The position numbers and the translations under genes are program-made. Positions 8,438 through 47,623 of a stretch of 64,000 bases of DNA are shown here, one piece after another. The DNA lies in the IMG/VR virus record IMGVR_UViG_2562617057_000010, positions 9,241 through 73,240 of that record. One strand, given 5' to 3'. The notes beneath the pieces were generated by a model, which made no database searches, had not been told where the DNA came from, and saw only the letters and a program-made list of their open reading frames with translations. This DNA comes from a virus. Its lineage: Duplodnaviria; Heunggongvirae; Uroviricota; Caudoviricetes. Positions within the stretch are counted from its first letter, which is position 1. Every line of letters starts with the position of its first letter.

Positions 8438-8917
8438 TTATTTCCCTGCCCTGATGGTGGATACAGTGATATTTTCTGCCACCCAGATCTCTGGCTTATC
8501 CAGCCGGTAACGGATGCCGCCCATCATGATAAAACCGGCCTCGTCCGGGATCAGAATGATGGGGTCAGCGAGCGGCATACTGACAGTCACTTCTGCAATG
8601 TTGTCGTCCGTGGGTTCGATGTTGACATCCGGCGCATCAAGCTCAAGCTGGCTGTAGTAGTCATTAGCCTGTTCGTCCCGCCAGACAAGTAGGGCGCATA
8701 ACAGCAAATCAGGGTCAACCTGACGCCATGGCCAGCGCTGCCAGTCGAACACGGCGTTGTACTGGCGAATACCCATTCTTATCTGTCCAAGCCCCATGTC
8801 TTTCTCTGCGGGCAAAAGACGAATATCACTCATCCACGAATCAAAGCCGGTATTGTCAAACACGGAAATGTCAAACACCTGCCGCAGATATGCATAAAGG
8901 CTGTCGAACTGGCTCAT
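8438..8917 (-). CDS. tail completion-like protein (candidate)
   Basis: 159-aa ORF overlapping gpL-like gene by 4 nt; position only. Confidence 0.3.
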   Translation of the reverse strand: MSQFDSLYAYLRQVFDISVFDNTGFDSWMSDIRLLPAEKDMGLGQIRMGIRQYNAVFDWQRWPWRQVDPDLLLCALLVWRDEQANDYYSQLELDAPDVNIEPTDDNIAEVTVSMPLADPIILIPDEAGFIMMGGIRYRLDKPEIWVAENITVSTIRAGK

Positions 8918-9459
8918 AAGATGTACACTCCCACACGGCCTGCGCCCTGGATAGCACGCAGCACAAAGGCCGCTTCAGCAAGCAGGGTTTCGCGGGTGTC
9001 ATTACTGTCGATATTGCTGTCGGCGTGGCGGGTGTTCACCGCCGTAAACTCACCGAGAAGATCGGCTTTGGCGCGGGCAAAGACCGCTTTTTTGTATTGT
9101 GCGCAAAGGGCGCTTTCTCCGTTAAGTTGCGGGCCTTCCACGTCCGCCGCCTGCGCTATTCCCTGCACTACGTAGCGGGATTTCACACCGGTCAGTGCGG
9201 TGTTCACCTCAAAGATGGCAGACAATAACGCCTGTTCTGCCAGTGATGCAGGGATATCCAGTGGGATAGTTCGGCTTTTGCGAAAATCAGCCATGGACAG
9301 ATCCGGCCAGAAGCCATCATTTTTAAGCATGCCTGTAGCAGTGTCTGTGTTCTGGTCTGTGCTGTAGCCTGGTTTCAGGTTCATGGCTGATTCTCTGTGT
9401 AGGTCAGGTCGGGCGAACGGTTCCGCGGCATGACTGACGCTTGTGCGTGTCATCCTCAC
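8914..9459 (-). CDS. head completion/stabilization protein, P2 gpL-like (candidate)
   Basis: 181-aa ORF (GTG at 9459 or ATG at 9453) at the position of P2 L; its partner gene M lies 36 kb away across the Mu-like insertion. Confidence 0.45.
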   Translation of the reverse strand: MRMTRTSVSHAAEPFARPDLHRESAMNLKPGYSTDQNTDTATGMLKNDGFWPDLSMADFRKSRTIPLDIPASLAEQALLSAIFEVNTALTGVKSRYVVQGIAQAADVEGPQLNGESALCAQYKKAVFARAKADLLGEFTAVNTRHADSNIDSNDTRETLLAEAAFVLRAIQGAGRVGVYIL

Positions 9460-9503
9460 CGTGCCCGCCTGAAGCCGTGGGGCTTTTATGACTAGGTAAT
9501 TTA

Positions 9504-9640
9504 TTCAAGATAACCGGGAAGAGATTAAAAAAGACGGGAATAGATTGGAATCAACAAGTTAGGAACTCAAGGTTTTCAAGATAAAGCGAGTCCAAAAATG
9601 TTAAACGGTTCGATATCAATAAAACATTCAAGATAACTCA
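9504..9640 (+). repeat. Mu-like left end: three transposase-binding-type repeats TTCAAGATAA (9504-9513, 9575-9584, 9627-9636)
   Basis: Same 10-mer three times within 135 bp; reverse complement TTATCTTGAA occurs three times at the other end of the element. Confidence 0.6.
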
Positions 9641-9760: not shown

Positions 9761-10381
9761 TTATGCGCTGGCTGCTTTCTGAGGTAGATTTAAGTGATCG
9801 CCCTTAGCTTCGGACAACGCGTAAATCTCTCTAACCTTTTCGTCTGGCAAATTACCAAGGCTTAACGCTATGGCTCTACGAACTCCAACTAGAGCGTGCA
9901 ACTCTTGGATGTGCTCATCCAGAAGAATGAGTAATTGCTCCGCTCCTTTTCTCCCAAGAACATCAGCTACTTGTTGTTTTTCTTGTGGTTTAAGAAATGA
10001 CAAGAACATTAGAATTTGAGCATCAACATTATCCGCATTCTCTTTTTTGGGTTCTTTGGAATCTTTTAGTTCAACATCACCCTCTCCCGTCATGAGCCAT
10101 TCCAAGGTAACATTTTCGCTTTCTGCTATCTTTTTTAACTGATGCGGGCGTGGTATCGGTGCGTAATCCCGCCTGTTGTAATAATTTTTTAAAGTGCCTT
10201 CATTGATCCCCCATGCCCGAGCAGCCGCATTTCTTGAAGGGTATCGTTCTACTAACCTAAAGATTCTTTCGATAATCGGTTCTTTTCCATCGGCAGGAAA
10301 AGAACCTTGGGGTGCTTTTCTCATTCTTGGTTCCTTTCTATCTAATTCATTGATAAATAATGAAATTAAAAAATAAACCAT
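9761..10381 (-). CDS. Mu c-type lysogeny repressor (HTH)
   Basis: Divergent from ner at the left end as in Mu; HTH-like segment RNAAARAWGINEGTLKNYY; true start may be internal Met at 10324. Confidence 0.7.
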   Translation of the reverse strand: MVYFLISLFINELDRKEPRMRKAPQGSFPADGKEPIIERIFRLVERYPSRNAAARAWGINEGTLKNYYNRRDYAPIPRPHQLKKIAESENVTLEWLMTGEGDVELKDSKEPKKENADNVDAQILMFLSFLKPQEKQQVADVLGRKGAEQLLILLDEHIQELHALVGVRRAIALSLGNLPDEKVREIYALSEAKGDHLNLPQKAASA

Positions 10382-10488: not shown

Positions 10489-10740
10489 ATGAGACAAAGA
10501 GAAGATCGCGACCGCGATTGGCCTTCGCTAAAGATTCAGCTGGCGCTCAAAGATAACGGGTGGTCTTCCTTCCGGGAGCTTTCACTCCATGCTGGTTATG
10601 CTCAGGATTCACTGAAAGCGGTGGTTCGTACACCGAACAAAAAATACGAACGCGTAATTTCTGACGCTATAGGTGTACCGCCAGAAATCATCTGGCCCAG
10701 CCGGTATCGTAACGATGGATTTATCAGGAAGGCGTCGTGA
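10489..10740 (+). CDS. ner: Ner-type DNA-binding regulator
   Basis: 83 aa, first gene of the early operon, Ner-like layout (…IQLALKDNGWSSFRELSLHAGY…PEIIWPSRY). Confidence 0.8.
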   Translation: MRQREDRDRDWPSLKIQLALKDNGWSSFRELSLHAGYAQDSLKAVVRTPNKKYERVISDAIGVPPEIIWPSRYRNDGFIRKAS

Positions 10741-10741
10741 T

Positions 10742-12847
10742 ATGCAGTCGTACGTTACCGTAAATGACCTGCTCGGCGTACCAGGAATGCCAGCCACCAC
10801 AAAAGGCATCCGACAGGCGTTACAGCGTTTTTCTCGTGATCTTGGTGACGTTAGTCGCCGTCGGGAAGGCACAAAAGCCATTGAGTACCACATTGATTGT
10901 CTGCCTGAAATAACACGAAAGGCACTGCGTGAACGCTATGTGGAACAGCTGGTGGCTACAGAGAACAATGTTTCTGAAGTGAAAGCTGTTACCAGAAAAA
11001 CACGCAATCCTGACGCTGTCCAGGCAATCGAAGCATATCGCGGTTCTCCACAACTGATGGAAGAACGCCTGAATGCGCTGACCGAAAACCAGCGCCGGGT
11101 ATCTGAAGCAAGGGCTGCACTGGTGGTGGAGGTGCTGAAGCTGGAAAGCGACGGTAATCTCGGGCGACTGAAAGCCATCAACTTTCTTGTTGAAAAAGCC
11201 CGTAAAGGTGAATTACCGGAGCGCCTGCAACAAGCCGCAGTTAATGCCAATGCAAAGCGTGGTGCCAATCGCACCATCAGTCGTGACCCGCTTTATCAGT
11301 GGGTGCTGAAATACAACCAGTCGCAGAACGCAGCCGAACGACTGCTGTTACTGGCACCAGGAAAGCGCGACGAAATAAAACCGGAAGAAATTAGCTGGCT
11401 ACCTGAATTTCTGGCGCAGTATCGCCAGGCGAATGGCAGACCTATGTCAGAAGCCTACGAGGATTTTGTCGCGGAATGGCAGCGTCGCCATGCTGACGAA
11501 CCATACATGCTGGAGGTGATGCCTTCTTACGATGTGGTGCGTTATGCCATGAAGAAATTGCCGGAAGTGGTGAAACAAAAAGGGCGTGTTACCGGCAGTG
11601 AATACCGTCAGCTTGAAGGATTCACCCGCCGCGACTGGACAGCTATGCCGGTGAATTATGTCTGGATTGGTGACGGTCACGGTATGAAGCTGAAATGTGC
11701 GCATCCGGTTCACGGGCGTCCATTTTCGCCGGAAGTTACGTTTGTCATTGATGGTGGAACCCGGTTTGTGGTTGGCTGGAGTCTTGATCTTGCTGAAAAC
11801 GTGTTTGCTGTTGCCGGTGCGATACAGCACGGTATTCGTAATCACGGGAAACCCTTCCTGTATTACTCGGATAATGGTTCCGGTGAAACGGCAGACATGC
11901 TGGATAAAGAGATCGTCGGGATTCTGCCCCGTCTGGGGATTAACCACCCCACCGGTATTGCCGGAAATCCGCAGGGGCGCGGCATTATTGAGCGCCTGAA
12001 CCGGACGCTGCCGATGCGTATAGCCAGGAGGTATCGCACCTATTTTGGCAGGGGTGCTGACCGGGAATCGTTGCGAGTACTTAATCGTGATCTGCGTTCA
12101 GCGTTTAATGCCCTGCAACAGGACAAGCCGCTGAATGCTCGCCAGAAATCTGCAATGCGCGAGCTGCCGTCCTGGTCAGAACTGATTGAGGCTATTCGCG
12201 AAGGCGTGGAATGGTACAACAACCGCCCGCATTCTGAACTGCCGATGAAACCAAACGGGAAGCATTGCAGCCCGGCTGAGTTCAGGAAAAAACGCCTGGC
12301 GGAAGAAAACACCGAAATTGAGTGGCTGAGCGATCTTGAGCTGCGCGACATGTTCCGTCCGATGGTGGAGCGTCCGGTAAGACGCTGTGAAATCAAATGG
12401 CTTGGGAATATTTATTACGCGCCGGAGCTGCGTGATGAACATGGTCGCAAAGTGCTTATCAGCTATGACATTCATGATGCAGAGCGAATTACAGTGCGCC
12501 GTAAGGATGGCAGTTTTATTTGTGAGGCGATATGGAACGGCAATAAACGCGCAGCCTTTCCTGTCAGTGCGGAATATCACAAACAGCAGCAGCGTATTAA
12601 AGGAATGCGCAAACGCGCTGAGGGAAAAATTCGTGATGCTGAAGATGAAGGTATTCAGGTTATTGAACAAAAAACGACAGAACCCTGGCTGGGGAATGTT
12701 TATCGCCCTGTGGGTAATGTGGTGACAGTTCAGCCTCAGGCTCCTGAGGAGACGCTTGATAATGCATACAACGCTGAGCGTGATGAATATCTGAATCATT
12801 CACTGGATATTCTGGAACAGAAAAGACGTAAAAAGCTGTTTAATTAA
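10742..12847 (+). CDS. Mu A-type DDE transposase
   Basis: About 700 aa; core WIGDGHGMKLK...FLYYSDNGSGE; C-terminus ERDEYLNHSLDILEQKRRKK closely resembles the Mu A C-terminal region; ATG at 10742 just after ner stop (track ORF starts at 10673). Confidence 0.9.
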   Translation: MQSYVTVNDLLGVPGMPATTKGIRQALQRFSRDLGDVSRRREGTKAIEYHIDCLPEITRKALRERYVEQLVATENNVSEVKAVTRKTRNPDAVQAIEAYRGSPQLMEERLNALTENQRRVSEARAALVVEVLKLESDGNLGRLKAINFLVEKARKGELPERLQQAAVNANAKRGANRTISRDPLYQWVLKYNQSQNAAERLLLLAPGKRDEIKPEEISWLPEFLAQYRQANGRPMSEAYEDFVAEWQRRHADEPYMLEVMPSYDVVRYAMKKLPEVVKQKGRVTGSEYRQLEGFTRRDWTAMPVNYVWIGDGHGMKLKCAHPVHGRPFSPEVTFVIDGGTRFVVGWSLDLAENVFAVAGAIQHGIRNHGKPFLYYSDNGSGETADMLDKEIVGILPRLGINHPTGIAGNPQGRGIIERLNRTLPMRIARRYRTYFGRGADRESLRVLNRDLRSAFNALQQDKPLNARQKSAMRELPSWSELIEAIREGVEWYNNRPHSELPMKPNGKHCSPAEFRKKRLAEENTEIEWLSDLELRDMFRPMVERPVRRCEIKWLGNIYYAPELRDEHGRKVLISYDIHDAERITVRRKDGSFICEAIWNGNKRAAFPVSAEYHKQQQRIKGMRKRAEGKIRDAEDEGIQVIEQKTTEPWLGNVYRPVGNVVTVQPQAPEETLDNAYNAERDEYLNHSLDILEQKRRKKLFN

Positions 12848-12881: not shown

Positions 12882-13835
12882 ATGAATATTTCTGATATTC
12901 GCGAAGAACTACGCACACTTGTAGAAAGTGAAAAAGTCACTTTTAAACAAATTGCTATTGAGAGTGATATTTCTACCGGGACTGTCAGTGCGTTTATTAA
13001 CGATAAATACAGCGGCGATAATGAACGTATCGCACAGGTACTGAAGTGCTGGCTTGACGATTATCTTGCTGCCGCAGACCTGCCGGAATTGCCTGGTTTT
13101 GTTCAAACGCAGACGGTAAAACAAATCTGGACAAGTATACGCTTTGCCAGCCTGACAGAGAGTATTGCTGTTATCTGCGGTAATCCTGGTGTGGGTAAAT
13201 CTGAAGCAGCCAAAGAGTATCGCCGTACCAATAATAACGTCTGGATGATCACCATGGCACCATCCCGTGTCAGTGTTCTGGAATGTCTTACGGAACTGGC
13301 GTTTGAGCTGGGAATGAACGGTATCCCACGCTGCAAGGGGCCGTTATCCCGTGAATTGCGCCGTCGTCTTGGGGGAACGCATGGGGTGGTTATTGTAGAT
13401 GAAGCAGACCATCTTGATATTGCGGCGCTGGAAGAACTTCGTTTGTTACAGGAATCAACCCGTATTGGCCTGGTATTGATGGGTAATCACCATCTTTACA
13501 CGAATATGACGGGGGGGAGCAAAACGGTTGAGTTTGCCCGTCTGTTTTCGCGCATAGCAAAACGCACGGCTATCAAAGCGCCCAAAGTTAACGATGTAAA
13601 AGCGATTGCGGAAGCCTGGGATGTTACCGCCAAAAAAGAGCAGGAATTCTTACTGGAGATTGCACAGAAACCAGGTGCAATTCGCACCATGACTTACACA
13701 TTACGTCTTGCTGCCATGAATGCTTACGGTAAAGGCAAACGTGTTAACGAAGATTACCTGCGTGAGGCTTACGAAGAACTGGATCAGGATGTGGATGTTC
13801 AGGAACAGTTGGGTATAAGGAGAGCGAAATCATGA
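12882..13835 (+). CDS. MuB-type transposition ATPase
   Basis: 317 aa, Walker A GNPGVGKS and Walker [11 protein letters not shown]; follows the transposase. Confidence 0.85.
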
Positions 13836-15844: not shown

Positions 15845-15936
15845 TACCACCATTAATATTTAATTAATTCACATTCTTTTAATTATTGGCGCGATGCGTC
15901 AGGGGACTACTCGCGCCTGAATCAGAACCGGAGAGA

Positions 15937-16491
15937 ATGAAAATGACAGCATGTGCTTATTTTAAACTGAGTGACACAGCCGCTAACGCTTATACGATTC
16001 GCTGGCTGAAAGATGTTTCTGTTAAGCGTGACAAAATCATCTGCTCATTGCAGCGTGCGTTTGGCGCAGACGGTGTTTCCCTTGTCAGTAACAGAGGGTA
16101 TGAACGGGTTGAATGTATCTGGATGAATCAATTAGCGCCGGAATTATGGCGTGGTAAATCAGACGGACTGTTTATTGGTGGATTTCCGTTTTATGGCGTT
16201 GTACCGGATATAACAACACCGGAAGGCCGAAACAATGCGACGCTTATTCAGGAACATGAAGAGCAACTCCGGAAATATCCCACATTCCCGGTCTGGTTGT
16301 GTAATGAACTCGGGGTTGATGTTGTACCCAACATGTTTGATCTCAAATCAGTCTGGACGATGCACCACAGCCGTGACGGATTCGGCATTTTGTTTGAGGT
16401 GTGCCTGCTGGATGGTGAGGTTAAGGGACCGGTTCCTGCCGAATGCCAGCGCATTAAACATTCTGAATTTGTGGCACTGACGGAGGAATAA
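15937..16491 (+). CDS. hypothetical early protein
   Basis: ATG at 15937 preceded by GGAGAG; track ORF begins at 15886. Confidence 0.5.
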   Translation: MKMTACAYFKLSDTAANAYTIRWLKDVSVKRDKIICSLQRAFGADGVSLVSNRGYERVECIWMNQLAPELWRGKSDGLFIGGFPFYGVVPDITTPEGRNNATLIQEHEEQLRKYPTFPVWLCNELGVDVVPNMFDLKSVWTMHHSRDGFGILFEVCLLDGEVKGPVPAECQRIKHSEFVALTEE

Positions 16492-17555: not shown

Positions 17556-17724
17556 AACATCGTATTCGTGGCTGGGGAAATTTACCTCGGTGAAACAGGA
17601 ATGCCCGACCTGCGGGAATGAATCCCCTGAATATCTGAAAGAGTGCCCTCATTGTGGCGGGCAGAAATGCAACCACTGCGATATGGGCGATGACACGGCG
17701 TGCATGAATTGTGAAGGTGAGTGA
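17542..17724 (+). CDS. small Cys-rich zinc-ribbon protein
   Basis: 60 aa with CPTCG, CPHCGG, CNHCD, CMNCEG. Confidence 0.45.
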   Translation: MENNETSYSWLGKFTSVKQECPTCGNESPEYLKECPHCGGQKCNHCDMGDDTACMNCEGE

Positions 17725-17725
17725 T

Positions 17726-18034
17726 ATGAATAATGGTGTATTTTCAAAATCAGAAGAGCTTGCCGCCCTGCTGATTGCCGGTGGTTTGCCGAAAAAAGAA
17801 GTGCATGACTTTGTGAATTTTGTATATGAGACGTCTCATGAAAAAGCTATTGATGAGGTCATGGCGTACCGGTTTGGCATTATTGCTGAGTCACTGAGTC
17901 CTCACTGGATTATTGAAAATCTCCGCGCTATTGCTGATGGCAACGATAAATCAGCAGCCGTTGCTGCACTGGATGTGTTACGGCAAATGAGTCTGAAATT
18001 TTATCCTGAATTTATTCTGAGGGCCGCAAAATGA
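17726..18034 (+). CDS. hypothetical early protein
   Basis: ATG at 17726 overlaps upstream stop (TGATATG); track ORF begins at 17711. Confidence 0.45.
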   Translation: MNNGVFSKSEELAALLIAGGLPKKEVHDFVNFVYETSHEKAIDEVMAYRFGIIAESLSPHWIIENLRAIADGNDKSAAVAALDVLRQMSLKFYPEFILRAAK

Positions 18035-34307: not shown

Positions 34308-36473
34308 ATGGGCCTTGTCCCTCCCGCTGTCCCGCTTTTTCCGGCACTGCCAGCAGGCGAAAACCCTCTCTCAATATCACCGTTAAATCAGGAGATTTCT
34401 GTGACCGGGAAACGCTTAAAAGCGTCTGTCATTATTGATCTTAATGGCAATCTTTCCCGGCGTTCCCGCCAGTATTCGAACCAGATAAACGCCCTGTCCC
34501 GCAGCGGGCAGAGTTCCCTGCGTGCCCTGCGTATGGAGGTTGTGCGCGTTTCTGGTGCCATTGACAGAATGGGTTCTCTGTCAACCCGTACATTCCGAAT
34601 GCTGTCAGCCGGGGCGCTGGGTATCGCTGGCGTGGGTTACACCGCCAATAAACTGTTTATTGGTGCAGCCGCCCAGCGTGAGCAGCAGATTATCGCCATG
34701 AACTCGCTCTATCACGGCGATAAGGCCAGAGCACAGGCCATGATGGCGTGGGCGAAGCAGAACGCAAAAGAAACCACCTGGGGGCTGGGTGGTGTTCTGC
34801 AGGAGATCCGCACATCAACTGCGTTTGGCATGACTGATGCCCAGGTAAAACAGTTCATCACCATGCTACAGAACCAGGGCGCGATGCATGGCTGGGATTT
34901 ACCCACTGCACAGGGGGCTTCGTTACAGTTCAAACAGATGTTTGCCCGTCAGCAAATCACGGCGGCGGATGCCAACCTGCTGACCGGTTACGGTATCAAC
35001 GTTTACAAGGTGCTGGCAGATGCAACGGGTGAGGATGAGAAAAAAATCCGTAAGCTGGGTGAAAAAGGCAAACTGGGCCTGAAATCCATCCTGACGGTGT
35101 TCAGAATCTTACTGGAACAGTCAAAAGGCGCACAGGCGGCGGCCATGAACTCCTGGGACGGGATGATGGCCCAGATGGAGGGCAATCTGCTTGAGTTTCG
35201 TACAAAGGTGGCAAACAGCGGCCCCTTTGAAGAAATCAAGAACGAGATGCGCCGGGTACTTAACTGGCACGACATGGCGGATAAATCCGGGGAACTTGAC
35301 GCACTGGCAGAAAACATTGGTCAGAAATTTCTGACCACGTTCAGAACGGTAAAAATCGCGGCGCAGGAATTATGGCGCTGGCTGAAACCGGGTAAAGATG
35401 CGCTGGCATGGGTTGACCAGAATATTGCCAGCCTGAAAAAACTGGCTGCTGTTCTGGTGTCTGTCTGGCTTGCCAATAAAGCCCTGAGAGCAGGCTGGGC
35501 CGTGGCAAAACCTTCGTGGCAGGTTGCCAGTTACCCGTTTAAAACCGGGCGTCGTATGTGGCGCTGGATGCGGAACCGCAAACGTGGGCGGGCAGGTCTG
35601 CCGGTGCCGGATGCCATGACGTCTGAGACGCTGTTGCAGGGCACCGGCATTCAGCGTGTGTTTGTCATCAACTGGCCCCGTGGATTTGGTGGCTACGGGA
35701 GTGGCGGCGGTCGTCGCGGACGGAGCGGCGGAAGAATGGCCCCGCTGTTACCCCGCCAGCCGTTATTGCTGTCCGGGCCACAGCCGCTGGCATTACCTGC
35801 ACCACGCCCTGTACTGGCATTACCCCCACCCGGCGTACCGGTAACGGCACGGCCTGCACCATTACCTTTACCCGGTAAATCCGGTCTTCTGAGCAGGCTT
35901 GCAGGCAGTGCTGCCGGGCAACTGGTTACGGGAACGGTCGGAAAGCTGGCTGATGCCGGGCGTGCTGTTGGCGGGTGGTTTTCCGGTATCGGAAACAAAC
36001 TTGCAGGCAGTGCGATCGGTCGGGTTGTGACAAAAGGTGCCGGGGCGCTGGGCTGGATGGGGAAAGGTGCCGGTCGTGCGTTGTCATGTCTGGGTGGCCC
36101 GGTAATGGGGGCACTCCAGCTTGCCCCCGTCCTGATGGATGAGCAGGCGTCAACCCATGAAAAAGCAGGCGCAATTGGCAGTACAGCCGGTGCATGGCTC
36201 GGCGGTGCCGTTGGCAGCCTTGCCGGACCGCTGGGTACGGTTGCCGGTGCCACGCTGGGCAGTGTCGCCGGGGAGTATCTGGGCGGTTTTGTAACCGACC
36301 TGTATCAGAAATGGACGGCCCCGGATAAGGAACCGCAGGAACAAAAAGTGAATGCGGAAGCCTCGCTGCGCGTCGAACTTGGCGAGGGGTTACGCCTGAC
36401 CAGTTCCCGTGTCACCGAGGATGGTATGGGGCTGAATATTTACGCGGGCGATAACTACATTACGGGCTGGTAA
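34308..36473 (+). CDS. tail tape measure protein (Mu Y-like)
   Basis: About 700 aa, Gly/Ala/Pro-rich; alternative start GTG at 34401 with AGGAG upstream. Confidence 0.8.
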
Positions 36474-41722: not shown

Positions 41723-43233
41723 TGTTTTATATTGATAACGACAGCGGCGTAACCGTCATGCCGCCCGTATCCGCCCAGCGTAGTGCTATCGTTCGCTGGT
41801 TTTCAGAAGGTGACGGGAATAATGTTATCACATGGCCCGGCATGGACTGGTTTAATATTGTGCAGGCGGAGTTATTAAACACGCTGGAAGAAGCCGGTAT
41901 TCAACCGGATAAAACAAAATTAAACCAGCTTGCACTGTCCATTAAAGCCATTATGAGCAATAACGCGCTGCTGATAAAAAATAACCTCAGCGAAATTAAA
42001 ACTGCCGGGGCATCAGCACAGCGTACAGCACGTGAAAATCTGGATATCTATGATGCCAGCCTGAACAAAAAAGGACTCGTTCAGCTAACCAGTGCCACTG
42101 ACAGCCCCAGTGAAACGCTGGCAGCCACCGCAAAAGCGGTGAAAATTGCGATGGATAATGCCAGTGCCCGTCTGGCAAAAGACCGGAACGGAGCAGATAT
42201 TCCCAATAAGCCGCTGTTTATCCAAAACGTCGGTTTACAGGAAACGGTAAACCGGGCCAGGAACGCTGTGCAAAAAAATGGCGATACCTTGTCCGGCGGA
42301 CTTACTTTTGAAAACAACTCAATCCTTGCCTGGATTCGGAATACTGACTGGGCAAAGATTGGTTTTAAAAATGATGCCGACAGCGATACTGATTCCTACA
42401 TGTGGTTTGAAACAGGCGACAACGGCAATGAATATTTCAAATGGAGACACCGCATCATTGGCACCCGGCCTAAAGACCTGATGAATCTTAAATGGAATGC
42501 TTTGTCTGTTCTTGTTAAAGCCCTTTTCAGCAGTGAAGTGAAAATATCGACAGTCAATGCACTGAGGATATTTAATTCATCTTTTGGTGCCATTTTTCGC
42601 CGTTCTGAAGAATGCCTGCATATCATCCCTACACGAGAGAATGAGGGAGAAAATGGTAATATAGGGCCATTACGCCCCTTTACGCTTAATCTCAGAACTG
42701 GCCGGATAAGCATGGGGCATGGTCTGGTTGTTACAGGAGATATATTTGCAAACCGTTTTGCAATTAACAGTAGTACCGGCATGTGGATTCATATGCGTGA
42801 CCAGAATGTTATTCTGGGCCGTAATGCGGTATCCAACGATGGTGCGCAGGCATTGCTTCGCCAGGACCATACCGACCGTAAATTCGTAATTGGTGGGCTG
42901 GGGAATAAGCAATTTGGCATCTACATGATTAATAACTCAAGGACAGCCAATGGCACCGATGGTCAGGCGTACATGGATAATAACGGTAACTGGCTTTGTG
43001 GTGCGCAAGTTATTCCCGGCAACTATGGCAATTTTGATTCCAGATATGTGAAAGATGTTCGACTTGGTACTCGTGTTGTTCAGGTCATGCAAAGAGGCGT
43101 GATGTATGAAAAATCAGGTCATGTAATAACAGGGCTTGGCATTATTGGCTCTGTTGATGGTGATGACCCAGCAGTATTCAGACCAATACAAAAATACATC
43201 AATGGCACATGGTATAACGTCGCACAGGTATAA
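41722..43233 (+). CDS. tail fibre protein S (constant part plus variable part Sv)
   Basis: 503 aa; gix-like site at codon ~167; C-terminus ...RPIQKYINGTWYNVAQV shared with the S' cassette end (...PVQYCINGTWYNAGSI). Confidence 0.85.
   Translation: MFYIDNDSGVTVMPPVSAQRSAIVRWFSEGDGNNVITWPGMDWFNIVQAELLNTLEEAGIQPDKTKLNQLALSIKAIMSNNALLIKNNLSEIKTAGASAQRTARENLDIYDASLNKKGLVQLTSATDSPSETLAATAKAVKIAMDNASARLAKDRNGADIPNKPLFIQNVGLQETVNRARNAVQKNGDTLSGGLTFENNSILAWIRNTDWAKIGFKNDADSDTDSYMWFETGDNGNEYFKWRHRIIGTRPKDLMNLKWNALSVLVKALFSSEVKISTVNALRIFNSSFGAIFRRSEECLHIIPTRENEGENGNIGPLRPFTLNLRTGRISMGHGLVVTGDIFANRFAINSSTGMWIHMRDQNVILGRNAVSNDGAQALLRQDHTDRKFVIGGLGNKQFGIYMINNSRTANGTDGQAYMDNNGNWLCGAQVIPGNYGNFDSRYVKDVRLGTRVVQVMQRGVMYEKSGHVITGLGIIGSVDGDDPAVFRPIQKYINGTWYNVAQV
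42218..42243 (+). other. gix-like invertase crossover site inside S (left G-segment boundary)
   Basis: TTATCCAAAACGTCGGTTTACAGGAA, imperfect 12-2-12 dyad of the gix/hix/cix type; no inverted second copy found. Confidence 0.6.
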
Positions 43234-44328: not shown

Positions 44329-44841
44329 TTAAATACTCCCCGCGTTATACCACGTTCCATTAATGCAATACTGAACTGGCCTTGCCTGAGTTGTATCAAT
44401 TAGTGCATCTCTGTTTGAGTTAACGGAACCGGTAACAACATAACCTGACCTGTCAGACCAGCCGGGACCATTCCATGTCTGAACAGATGACAGACCACCA
44501 AGGCGAATACCTGTAATAAACCTTGAGTTACATTCTGCCTGCGTATATGCGCCAACATCTCTCGCTGATGGCTTGCGTGTTGTGGTGTAAAACTCTGACC
44601 AGCCAGCCTCAAATCCATAACCATCACGCGCTGAACGATAAAAAATACCGCCGTTCTTATAATTCACACGGAACTGTACAGCAGGGCAACTCCCCGTATT
44701 CATATTGAAGTGGAGTATTAATGCTGTTGCGCCTTTGATATCTGCATCATAAACACCGCTAATCAATGCAATATAGAAAACGACGATCGAATCAATTGAA
44801 TCGATCGGTAATACAGATCGATTATGTCCTGATAACCACAC
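44329..44841 (-). other. S' variable tail-fibre cassette remnant, 5'-truncated
   Basis: C-terminal fibre-tip homology to Sv; in-frame stop immediately upstream of the GTG at 44841; the first ~20 codons coincide with the mom GATC control region. Confidence 0.6.
44785..44819 (+). promoter_or_regulatory. three clustered GATC sites upstream of com-mom (Dam-dependent mom control region)
   Basis: GATC at 44785, 44803 and 44816, 75-110 bp upstream of com ATG, matching the known Mu mom regulation layout. Confidence 0.6.
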
Positions 44842-44893: not shown

Positions 44894-45082
44894 ATGAAAT
44901 CAATTCGCTGTAAGAACTGCAACAAACTGTTATTTAAGGCGGGTTCCTTTGATCACATTGAAATCAGGTGTCCGCGTTGCAAACGTCACATCATAATGCT
45001 GAATGCCTGCGAGCATCCCACGGAGAAACATTGTGGGAAAAGAGAAGAAATCACGCATTCTGACGAAACCGTGCGTTATTGA
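44894..45082 (+). CDS. com: Com zinc-finger translational activator of mom
   Basis: 62 aa, [16 protein letters not shown]...[12 protein letters not shown], matching Mu Com as recalled from memory; overlaps mom start. Confidence 0.85.
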
Positions 45083-45728
45083 GTATGAAGGCCAGATTGT
45101 TGGCTATGGTTCAAAGGAGCTGCGCGTTGAAACCATATCCTGCTGGCTGGCCCGCACAATCATTCAGACAAAACATTACTCCCGCCGTTTTGTGAATAAC
45201 TCTTACCTTCACCTGGGAGTATTCAGCGGACGTGAGCTGGTTGGCGTTCTCCAGTGGGGATATGCCCTTAACCCCAACTCAGGTCGTCGTGTCGTGCTTG
45301 AAACGGATAACCGGGGTTATATGGAGCTGAACCGCATGTGGCTACACGACGACATGCCCCGCAACTCTGAATCACGGGCCATCAGTTATGCGCTGAAAAC
45401 CATCAGATTACTGTATCCATCAGTGGAATGGGTACAGTCCTTTGCAGACGAACGCTGCGGACGTGCTGGCGTTGTGTATCAGGCGTCAAATTTTGATTTT
45501 ATTGGCGGCCATGAAAGCACGTTCTACGAGCTGGATGGCGAGTGGTATCACGAGATAACGATGAACGCGATTAAGCGCGGTGGACAACGAGGCGTGTATT
45601 TACGGGCTAATAAAGAGCGTGCCGTGGTGCATAAATTTAATCAGTATCGCTACATCAGGTTCCTGAACAAGCGAGCAAAGAAGCGGCTAAATACTAAGCT
45701 ATTCAGGATTCAGCCATATCCGAAATGA
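45003..45728 (+). CDS. mom: Mom DNA modification protein (acetyltransferase-like)
   Basis: 241-aa ORF overlapping com, Mu Mom-like, last gene before the right end. Confidence 0.85.
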
Positions 45729-45748
45729 TCCCATTTAATGAATAAAAA

Positions 45749-45772
45749 AACAGCGGTTAATGCCGCTGTTTT
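45749..45772 (+). terminator. rho-independent terminator after mom
   Basis: AACAGCGG-TTAAT-GCCGCTGTT hairpin followed by TTTT, overlapping the innermost right-end repeat. Confidence 0.6.
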
Positions 45773-45846
45773 ATCTTGAATAACTTCCATATGCGCGCTT
45801 CTGGCTTATCTTGAATGATTTCCATATCTATCTTGAATAATTTTCC
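45771..45846 (+). repeat. Mu-like right end: three inverted transposase-binding-type repeats TTATCTTGAA (45771, 45806, 45829)
   Basis: Reverse complements of the left-end 10-mer, compactly spaced; outermost copy with flank (GGAAAATTATTCAAGATA) mirrors the left terminus (GGTAATTTATTCAAGATA). Confidence 0.6.
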
Positions 45847-45860
45847 GCGCTTTACTTTCG

Positions 45861-46562
45861 TTATACCGCCCGTAATGCGCGCAGACGGGCGGCTATTTTG
45901 TTTCGTATGGCGCGAACACCTGCTTTGGGAGTGGTGCTGTGCGCACGGGCCATCCACTCATCGGCGCTACGTAGTTTCGCCACGTCGTAAATGGCGGCCG
46001 GGGTTGTCGGTTTGCCATCGCTGTCCCGTAACAGGTTAAGACCGGCGAATTTGTACCATCTGGCAACTATCTCTTCGTGCAGTGTCCAGTCTTTTTCGAT
46101 ATGGCTCATCACGCGGCTGAAATAGGGCTCGACGGAAAGGCCTTTATCAAACTGAATCTGTGCCCACTGCATGACCTCATCGGCGACGAACGTTGGCAAA
46201 TCACGGTCAAAGCGTGGTGGCATGGGTTGATTCTGTCCGATGGCGATATCGGCCCATTCCAGAGCTTTGTCCATTTCGCCGGTATCAAACAGCCAGACGA
46301 TGCACCAGGTAAACGGGATGTATTTGTACTCCTCGCCGCTTTGCAGCCACGCCTCAATCGTCGGCATCCAGCGCGGCAGCAGGGATTCACGCTTGAATGC
46401 CACACGATCGGCGTTGGTGGCGCAACTGCTCACAGCCCTGCAGTCGATTTCCAGTTGCGCCAGTTGCAGATGAAGACTGTCGCGTACGGTCAGTGCCTCG
46501 CGGTGTTCCATTGCCTGCTGCGCGGCCAGTCTGGCTCTGAACTTTTGCGCCGGAGTCTGCAT
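45861..46562 (-). CDS. terminase endonuclease (small) subunit, P2 gpM-like
   Basis: 233-aa ORF following N-like capsid gene in P2 O-N-M order. Confidence 0.7.
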   Translation of the reverse strand: MQTPAQKFRARLAAQQAMEHREALTVRDSLHLQLAQLEIDCRAVSSCATNADRVAFKRESLLPRWMPTIEAWLQSGEEYKYIPFTWCIVWLFDTGEMDKALEWADIAIGQNQPMPPRFDRDLPTFVADEVMQWAQIQFDKGLSVEPYFSRVMSHIEKDWTLHEEIVARWYKFAGLNLLRDSDGKPTTPAAIYDVAKLRSADEWMARAHSTTPKAGVRAIRNKIAARLRALRAV

Positions 46563-46573
46563 ACGTCAGTCCG

Positions 46574-47623
46574 TTACGCTGCCTGGTTTGGTTTCGCATG
46601 TTCAGGTGATGGCAGTCCTGCCAGTTCAATGTTGTCAAACGAACCGTAGAGTGCGTCATATTCCACGGCGCAACCCTGCATACGCAGCCAGTTGTTTTCG
46701 AAGCGTTTGCGGTCATCAATCCATTCGGCACGGCGTTGCTGTGTTCCGCGCTGGAAGTACATATGCAGATTCCAGAGCGTGGTGACAACCAGGCGGTTAT
46801 CCGGCATAAATGGCGGACTGAATGACTTGCGTCCGGCGATCTCACGGTTGATAAGCTGGGCGGCGACTTTTTCTGTCGGGCGGTCGATGCGGTTCAGCAT
46901 ACTGACCGTATCTGCTGCGATAATGTTCTGTGATACCAGTACAACCAGATCCGGGTGTTGACGGAATTCGGGTGGAATGCAGGTATTGATTACATCGGCG
47001 GCAATAGCATCAACAGACGTAAAATCAGCCCCGGTTCCTGTACGGTTCAATACGACCTTGTCAGTAATGATCTGTTTTGGTGTGCGCGCTTTAACAATCT
47101 GATGCCATCCCGGGTGAATATCTTCCCCGTTCGGGCAGGTATCAGGATTGGTTTCATCTGCGGCATGTGTACCGTTCAGTGCCACGCGTAACAGGTCGTT
47201 GGTGACTGACTTGTAAAAGAACGCCTGAAGACGGTTATAGAACTCGTTTTCGGTGCCTGCGTTTGCCCAGTTGGTCAGGGTGGTGTAGTCCAGGAATGAA
47301 CCGGAATCCACTTCGTAAAGCTTGTACTCGTTGCCTTCACTCCCCAGCGCTTTATTGAAGCGTCCGTCTTTCTTGCGCCCGGTATACAACCCCGGAATTC
47401 CGGTACTGACTACCTGGCCGACAAGCTGTTCGACCAGCATGACGGTGATCTTGCCCATGAACGGGTCGGCATTCTCAATCAGGGCATCGCGTAGCAGGGT
47501 TTCACGCGGTGGGCTGATGGTAAAAAACTGTTGTGCTGTAAATACGCCATTGGCTTTTGCCATCGAAATGGCGTAATTACGCAAAAACTTTTGCGCCTGT
47601 GGTGATAACATCTGTGCGGCCAT
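46574..47623 (-). CDS. major capsid protein, P2 gpN-like
   Basis: 349 aa (P2 N ~357), between O-like and M-like genes. Confidence 0.8.
   Translation of the reverse strand: MAAQMLSPQAQKFLRNYAISMAKANGVFTAQQFFTISPPRETLLRDALIENADPFMGKITVMLVEQLVGQVVSTGIPGLYTGRKKDGRFNKALGSEGNEYKLYEVDSGSFLDYTTLTNWANAGTENEFYNRLQAFFYKSVTNDLLRVALNGTHAADETNPDTCPNGEDIHPGWHQIVKARTPKQIITDKVVLNRTGTGADFTSVDAIAADVINTCIPPEFRQHPDLVVLVSQNIIAADTVSMLNRIDRPTEKVAAQLINREIAGRKSFSPPFMPDNRLVVTTLWNLHMYFQRGTQQRRAEWIDDRKRFENNWLRMQGCAVEYDALYGSFDNIELAGLPSPEHAKPNQAA

Follow-up and report, generated by a model that had tools for sequence, protein, structure and literature searches.

Every Mu-like and B3-like phage described until 2021 conserved the terminal dinucleotides TG and CA, according to a survey of Leptospira prophages from that year, with a target duplication that measures 5 bp in Mu and 6 bp in B3; the same survey called unusual a group of Leptospira prophages that carry TA at both ends and are flanked by 6-bp repeats (PMC8705779). 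The CA end and the 5-bp stagger count as hallmarks of Mu, which has both in common with HIV (PMC3562280). Among enterobacterial phages, two sets of described relatives are pertinent here: the Sp18-like phages of EHEC, comprising Sakai Sp18 together with Mu_JNE122137 and Mu_JNE082796, the latter two residing in Stx phages (LC727895, LC727881), and the Yersinia phages vB_YpM_5 and vB_YpM_6, infective Mu-like members of the genus Muvirus whose ends belong to the same transposase clade as the element treated below (PMC10434027). [quoted passage not shown] Ends and duplication length are absent from the discussion in the papers on Sp18 (PMC2669165), CC119 Mu-like (PMC10132054) and Yersinia Mu-like (PMC10434027) phages. 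In the literature available without subscription we found no published 4-bp duplication or TA terminus for an enterobacterial Mu-like phage, the sole record being two GenBank feature tables, those of LC727895 and LC727881, in which the depositors annotate a 4-bp "duplication due to insertion of Mu."

The locus analysed here lies in a 64,000-nucleotide stretch of Caudoviricetes DNA (IMG/VR record IMGVR_UViG_2562617057_000010, positions 9,241 to 73,240), hereafter the window. An initial annotation of this stretch had noticed a Mu-like right end lacking the canonical terminal CA and had offered two readings, namely that the lineage uses a different terminus, or that the right end is mutated and, together with a missing invertase, marks a decaying element. 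Sequence comparison leads us to regard positions 45771-45854 as a functioning right end, that of a Mu-like prophage of 36,368 bp which represents a lineage variant with TA termini and a 4-bp target duplication, and the reading as a decaying end is not supported; we assign this reading a probability of roughly 0.87. Our confidence is high for the structural conclusions (boundaries, terminal TA, 4-bp duplication and their conservation) and moderate for the mechanistic reading of how TA / 4-bp transposition may proceed.

Boundaries, insertion site and end repeats

Both junction regions were compared by BLAST with 5,426 complete E. coli genomes. The outer parts (8700-9486 and 45855-46600) are 98-99% identical to P2-like prophages in these genomes, and from 9487 on, and up to 45854, the matches are Mu-like prophages. 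In E. coli CFSAN029787 nothing separates the two P2 parts, which have 4 bp in common where they meet, and the empty site reads GTGGGG-CTTT-CGTTATACC. This uninterrupted copy and the BLAST break-points delimit the Mu-like prophage as 9487-45854, with the tips 5'-TATGACTAGG...CCGCGCTTTA-3' and CTTT on both sides as a 4-bp duplication (Table 1). Neither T9487 nor A45854 is present in the target sequence of the empty site, and we infer from the junction comparison that the right terminus is A45854; the initial annotation had chosen the correct region and ended it one base short. It had also correctly placed the stop codon of a "gene M" at 45861-45863. This minus-strand reading frame of 233 amino acids matches a gene annotated as gpM in 98.4% identical E. 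coli prophages and belongs to the P2-like prophage, outside the Mu-like phage, which accordingly jumped into another prophage. The point of insertion is the gpM-gpL spacer, 3 nt downstream of the gpM stop and upstream of gpL, and the two genes now stand 36 kb apart. The insertion has probably separated gpL and its downstream genes from the late promoter of P2.

Table 1. Positions in the window of the Mu-like prophage, its ends, selected genes and flanking P2-like features.
Feature	Position	Strand	Basis or remark
gpL (head completion), P2-like prophage gene	8914..9459	-	Pfam Phage_GPL; E. coli prophage annotation
Target duplication, left copy, CTTT	9483..9486		Uninterrupted CFSAN029787 site
Left end, attL-like, 5'-TATGACTAGG	9487..9637	+	BLAST break-points, 9 independent insertions
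Putative site core L1	9504-9513		Core TTCAAGATAA, 17 nt from left terminus
Putative site core L2	9575-9584		Core TTCAAGATAA
Putative site core L3	9627-9636		Core TTCAAGATAA
Repressor, c-like, unrelated to Mu c	9761..10381	-	phrog_3037 transcriptional repressor, E 1e-43
ner-like early regulator	10489..10740	+	Pfam HTH_35; 35% identical to Mu Ner
Transposase A, 701 aa, DDE = D311, D377, E417	10742..12847	+	Pfam HTH_Tnp_Mu_1 (PF02316), Mu-transpos_C (PF09299)
B, MuB-like AAA+ target-capture protein	12882..13835	+	Pfam Phage-MuB_C (PF09077), AAA_22; 74.5% identical to MuB
Junction of 1110-bp deletion relative to Mu (Mu 34503-35612)	44741..44764		Local blastn against Mu
com	44894-45082	+	97% identical to Mu protein
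mom	45003-45728	+	97% identical to Mu protein
Hairpin, perfect 10 bp, terminator-like, after mom	45747..45772		Repeat finding; Mu DNA identity runs to 45780
Right end, attR-like, ...TTTTCCGCGCTTTA-3', terminal TA 45853-45854	45771..45854	+	Junction comparison
Putative site core R3	45771-45780		Repeat search
Putative site core R2	45806-45815		Repeat search
Putative site core R1	45828-45837		CTATCTTGAA, 17 nt from right terminus
Target duplication, right copy, CTTT	45855..45858		Junction comparison
gpM (small terminase), P2-like prophage gene, outside Mu-like phage	45861..46562	-	Pfam Phage_term_smal

Each end carries three copies of a short repeat, in opposite orientation at the two ends. On the right, TTATCTTGAA is exact at R3 and R2, and the third copy, R1, matches it at 9 of 10 positions, with an exact 9-mer beginning at 45829; the inverted copies L1 to L3 on the left are exact. 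The earlier claim of three right-end copies that mirror the left end is thereby confirmed, with the start of the third moved to 45828. With up to one mismatch, the repeat has eight matches in the whole window against 2.9 expected, a count reached in 0 of 100 shuffles, and repeat finding recovers both repeat families as well as the hairpin. These putative transposase sites, three and three around the core TTCAAGATAA, are arranged as in Mu, where three sites likewise occupy each end, R1 and R2 are adjacent and L1 stands apart from L2 and L3; the core itself differs from the 22-bp consensus of Mu. The outermost right copy and its flank had been said to match the left terminus over 18 bp, and the match is real, although it holds for 16 of these 18 positions (9-26 from each tip). 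The absence of CA between the last repeat and the gene M stop stands as described: positions 45838-45863 (TAATTTTCCGCGCTTTACTTTCGTTA) contain neither CA nor TG, and the nearest CA within the element lies 30 bp from the right junction.

Three end types can be compared, those of the window, of vB_YpM_5 and of the Sp18-like phages, and in all three a distance of 17 nt separates the first site core from the tip, on the left as on the right. The core is TTCAAGATAA in the window and TTTGATAC in both vB_YpM_5 and the Sp18-like phages. The left tips are alike across the three types, T[A/G]T[G/A]A...GGT, and so are the right tips, which read TA[A/T]AGCGCG inward and resemble the first right-end bases of Mu (TAAAGCGCGG in the window, TGAAGCGGCG in Mu). 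The tips of vB_YpM_5, TATGAAGAGG...GCGCGCTTTA (the right one also read as TTTTGCGCGCTTTA), have TA at both ends. It appears from these alignments that the internal repeats, presumably recognized by the variable N-terminal portion of the transposase, have diverged and that the terminal ~10 bp travel with the conserved transposase core. Consistent with such a split between repeats and tips, the A genes of vB_YpM_5 and vB_YpM_6 share 86% DNA identity with the window only from 11017 on (about codon 92), and their N-terminal part differs. The com and mom genes of these two phages are 96% identical to those of the window, and their invertase, unlike that of the window, is kept. In the "circular" record of vB_YpM_5 (MT374853.1; L010, 1154-1232), the right terminus is separated from the left by 79 bp of non-phage sequence. 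This is probably host sequence from the ends of virion DNA that the assembler joined up, a hint of the variable host DNA that Mu-like virions carry at both ends.

Junctions of related insertions

Eight further insertions with the same end type come from E. coli STEC388, STEC346, VL40, FDAARGOS_943, RM9088 and 06-00048 and from two IMG/VR contigs, and with the window they give nine duplications: cttt, cagg, attc, ttca, gaaa, taag, tata, agga and gata. Five Sp18-like insertions give agag, catc, tgcc, agtc and aaca. In this transposase clade the duplication is exactly 4 bp in 14 of 14 independent insertions, as opposed to the 5 bp of Mu proper; a script found the longest flank repeat to be k = 4, and none longer, in 13 matched pairs, and the fourteenth (tata, 06-00048) was read from printed junctions. 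As for Mu, the insertion sites are unrelated and include fliH, alr, vgrG, nrfA-nrfB and P2-like and Stx prophages. The same analysis of a classical Mu-type prophage, that of E. coli SE11, returned TGTATTG...GCTTCA and the 5-bp duplication ccgat.

The ends of the window's element read 5'-TA...TA-3' rather than 5'-TG...CA-3'. In the clade, each of the 26 distinct right junctions has a terminal TA, including all 17 of the Sp18-like type (GCGCTATA), although these junctions derive from only three end-sequence types and the independent lineages behind a right end that is always TA are correspondingly few. Left junctions are divided between TA (19) and TG (14), and near-identical elements differ at that base only. 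Sp18-like left termini are mostly TG, with TA in some, and copies are identical across the first 25 bases save base 2 (TGTAACCAGG versus TATAACCAGG). Each of these two forms occurs at several insertion sites; in IMG/VR, for instance, loci L055, L064, L065, L066 and L071 carry a different form from L048, L052, L057 and others. Junctions were counted by strict end patterns at relevant loci only, a loose left-end pattern having given spurious AT-rich matches. A scan of viral contigs with the AT-rich right-end 16-mer yielded mostly chance matches, only L147 and L172 being relevant among the matches listed, and a scan of genome contigs with the transposase yielded eight loci, of which two were useful and represent the same insertion.

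Flanks at 33 left and 26 right junctions (the window, L002-L110, L147 and L172) reveal a weak target preference with palindromic symmetry around the 4-bp repeat, which can be written 5'-G N [N D H N] N C-3'. Outside the left end, G occupies position -2 in 20 of 33 cases (p about 1.5e-5), outside the right end C occupies +2 in 14 of 26, and within the duplication C is very rare at position 2. The figure for G at -2 is 13 of 14 in the paired set, and we use the lower one obtained with all left flanks. A preference of this symmetry fits a two-fold symmetric complex that cuts 4 bp apart.

Two genomes in the survey carry rearranged junctions. In E. coli STEC388 (NZ_CP041425.1; L002, L003) the halves of one fliH insertion (cagg) lie ~0.9 Mb apart on opposite strands, which suggests a chromosomal inversion between Mu-like prophage copies. 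In E. coli 06-00048 (NZ_CP015229.1 and NZ_CP012497.1; L013-L016) identical junctions occur on the chromosome record, where ~100 kb separate them and their order is wrong, and again on a 136-kb "plasmid" record. Either the assembly is redundant or a large segment has been duplicated or excised.

The transposase and the mosaic genome

Transposase A can be aligned with MuA over its full length at 24-30% identity (BLASTP E 2e-19), and with the Sp18-like transposase at 75% amino acid identity over 695 aligned residues (74% for DNA). The columns of D311, D377 and E417 are invariant in 41 relatives. A profile of these relatives, compared with solved structures, finds MuA best (4FCY, E 2.6e-22), then the MuA core (1BCM, 9e-14) and then TnsB, and it also matches the MuA enhancer-binding domain 1TNS (9e-12). 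A structure search with the single sequence of A had returned only retroviral integrase cores, with ASV/RSV integrase best over the catalytic region and no MuA; this result is not taken to mean that A is unlike MuA, the profile being what recovered MuA and TnsB. The protein is a MuA-homologous DDE transposase with a Mu-type N-terminus and a C-terminal beta-barrel. With E values up to 1e-3 its family comprises 1,618 cluster representatives, and Shigella, E. coli, Salmonella and Yersinia commonly carry close relatives.

Residues 1-670 of A belong to the Sp18-type clade and the last ~31 amino acids (ERDEYLNHSLDILEQKRRKK) are MuA-like, unlike the C-terminal tail of the Sp18-like transposases. The tail is also different in close relatives of A whose residues 1-664 are 96% identical. 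DNA identity to Mu begins on the left at 12754, which is codon 671 of A, at ~80%, and on the right the identity to Mu, D108 and SfMu (94-96%) reaches 45780. Between these two junctions of the mosaic, the MuA-type tail adjoins the MuB-type B gene, which lies directly downstream of A as in Mu. The non-Mu part comprises attL, the repressor, ner, codons 1-670 of A and the last 74 bp of attR. On this evidence the phage is best described as a natural chimera, in which this non-Mu part comes from the TA / 4-bp lineage and the A tail, B and the region from kil to mom are of Mu type. The MuA-like tail may have been retained so that the foreign transposase works with a Mu-type B.

A tblastn comparison with all Mu proteins found 79-100% identity from kil to mom, mostly 90-100%, with gp6, gp7, gp9 and S at 79-89%. 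From B to mom the Mu counterparts are full length except for gp19, Gin and the N-terminal part of S', of which only residues 186-328 are present. Neither gp19 nor Gin has a tblastn match in the window, and the same search of the window found no counterpart of Mu c. Two reading frames absent from Mu, 15886-16491 between gam and gp11 and 17711-18034 between gp13 and gp14, match phrog_2260 and phrog_1988, whose function is unannotated. The loss of Gin and that of the S' N-terminus both follow from one deletion of 1110 bp relative to Mu, to which the right inversion site and the 5' part of S' were lost along with gin. The segments flanking this deletion overlap by 24 bp at its junction. The left inversion site is still present (42218-42257), and since gin and the right inversion site are gone, the tail-fibre G segment is frozen in the S/U orientation. 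Mu itself is viable when defective in gin. The missing invertase noted in the initial annotation is therefore real; by itself the deletion fixes the orientation of the tail fibres and would not disable transposition. Apart from the loss in the gin region, nothing in the element appears decayed.

Taken against Mu, the element shares gene order, most of its proteins, the number and arrangement of end sites, the domain plan of the transposase and the ability to insert at unrelated sites, and differs in its repressor, in a divergent Ner and transposase, in the deleted gin, in the core of its sites, in TA at both 3' ends and in a 4-bp duplication. As TA and 4 bp depart from two classical features of Mu and the other Mu features examined are present, we file the element as a Mu-type transposition variant and not as a new kind of element. 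It is kin to the Sp18-type clade by its transposase, and it has the 4-bp duplication and the GCGC(T/A)TTA-type TA right end of that clade; the core is TTCAAGATAA in place of the Sp18-type TTTGATAC, a sister specificity within the clade. With the Leptospira TA-TA prophages (WETA1 group), for which multiple insertion sites are evidence of activity, the element shares TA at both ends, whereas their duplication is 6 bp, their transposase lies nearer B3/Tn552 and lacks the Mu enhancer-binding domain that the window's profile matches (1TNS), their phage genomes have no sequence relationship to this one and their host belongs to a different phylum (PMC8705779).

Alternative readings and a proposed mechanism

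It is improbable that the ends are functional and this copy is nonetheless immobile, domesticated or recently inactivated with genes that still look intact. The right end of the window differs from most relatives at one base (TTTTCCGCGC versus TTTTGCGCGC), with C and not G at position -10, between the tip and R1, where other copies have a conserved GCGCGC, and this would agree with recent inactivation, as would the loss of gin. The same C, however, is found in one other copy among the right ends compared, IMG/VR contig 2850808358_000012, which has a 98% identical transposase and occupies another site with its own fresh duplication, agga. Moreover, the duplication around the window's element is perfect, and A, B, the repressor and the late genes have uninterrupted reading frames.

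Still more improbable is the reading that the right end is a dead Mu end, mutated from CA to TA, in a prophage decaying in place. In its favor one may cite the right end without CA, the deletion of gin and part of S', the missing gp19 and, again, the base at -10. Yet TA stands at the left end too and not at the right alone; the same termini occur around nine independent insertions with perfect 4-bp duplications and in infective vB_YpM_5; and the exact right-end variant of the window recurs elsewhere, as just described. The last 74 bp and the transposase belong to another lineage, so that the end is not a point-mutated Mu end, and the essential genes are all full length. The initial annotation's proposal of a mutated right end is not supported, given the recurrence of that variant with its own duplication, and neither is its proposal of decay, given the conserved DDE triad and the fact that every Mu gene from B to mom with a counterpart in the window is full length there. 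Its other proposal, that the lineage uses a different terminus, is upheld by these nine insertions with TA at both 3' ends, by vB_YpM_5 and by the uniform right junctions of the clade; the comparison with the same prophage type in related strains that it recommended shows TA ends and 4-bp duplications recurring at other sites. The right-end feature is thus attributed to lineage-specific end rules and not to decay.

Hardly credible, finally, is the notion that a CA lying further out or in marks the real terminus, with a canonical 5-bp duplication, and that TA and 4 bp reflect an alignment offset: Mu and most described relatives do have TG...CA with 5 or 6 bp (PMC3562280, PMC8705779), and the STEC388 insertion can also be read as 5 bp (caggt), but the empty-site comparison contradicts an offset, in that P2 sequence stops at 9486 and resumes at 45855 with T9487 and A45854 foreign to the target, a 5-bp reading is impossible on either side in the other 13 pairs, the nearest internal CA is 30 bp away, a classical Mu-type prophage analysed in this way yields 5 bp and CA, and the target preference is symmetric about a 4-bp and not a 5-bp center.

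If the right end is indeed a working TA end, transposition may be pictured as follows. The N-terminal part of A would bind the three ~20-bp sites at each end, with the core TTCAAGATAA and the outermost core 17 nt from the tip, and a multi-site synaptic complex would form in which each end is nicked to expose a 3'-OH. The catalytic core would nick after a terminal 3'-TA in place of 3'-CA. The two 3'-OH ends would then attack a target captured by B at positions 4 bp apart, not 5, in a one-step strand transfer that leaves a 4-bp duplication and is followed by repair or replication. The penultimate base may be C or T, given the TG or TA of the clade's left ends, while the terminal A:T pair would always be kept. 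Relative to Mu, two parameters would have been altered, namely nicking after 3'-TA (Y-A across the clade) and joining 4 bp apart. The switch from phage to host sequence would be expected right after ...GCGCTTTA on the right and before TATGA... on the left.

TA, like CA/TG, is a pyrimidine-purine step, and the terminal A:T pair is preserved in it. Work by Lee and Harshey from 2001 and 2003 reportedly found that the terminal A:T pair and the deformability of this step matter most for MuA, and that mutation of the terminal CA in Mu impairs assembly of the MuA transpososome. A TA end would accordingly be expected to be a poor substrate for MuA itself, and the effect would count against Mu-like chemistry here only if A, which is ~70-75% different, behaves like MuA. 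Retroviral integrases such as those of MLV and PFV have a 4-bp stagger and require a terminal CA. They have a DDE core of the same fold and the same duplication length as the window's element, and lack its multi-site ends and B-type ATPase; the likeness lies in how the step works and not in membership.

A more far-reaching proposal is tentative, and we consider it slightly less than an even bet: the Sp18-type branch of the MuA-family transposases may have its own transpososome geometry and end rule, a 4-bp stagger with 3'-YA in which the right TA is fixed and the left end alternates between C and T, and attL, c, ner, A(1-670) and the last 74 bp of attR may form a portable specificity cassette grafted on a Mu chassis, with the MuA tail kept for MuB and presumably ClpX.

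Boundary tools and annotators that seek TG...CA and 5-bp repeats will misplace the ends of a widespread enterobacterial group. Here is a phage of Escherichia and Shigella whose late genes are ~95% Mu, whose MuA homologue is divergent and which has TA ends with a stagger of 4 bp. Mu and this chimera form a tractable pair for strand-transfer spacing, for the strictness of the penultimate base and for the question of which part of the transposase has to match MuB. If the proposed reading is true, the phage would be a ready-made E. coli/Shigella system for the choice of stagger length and terminal base in DDE recombinases.
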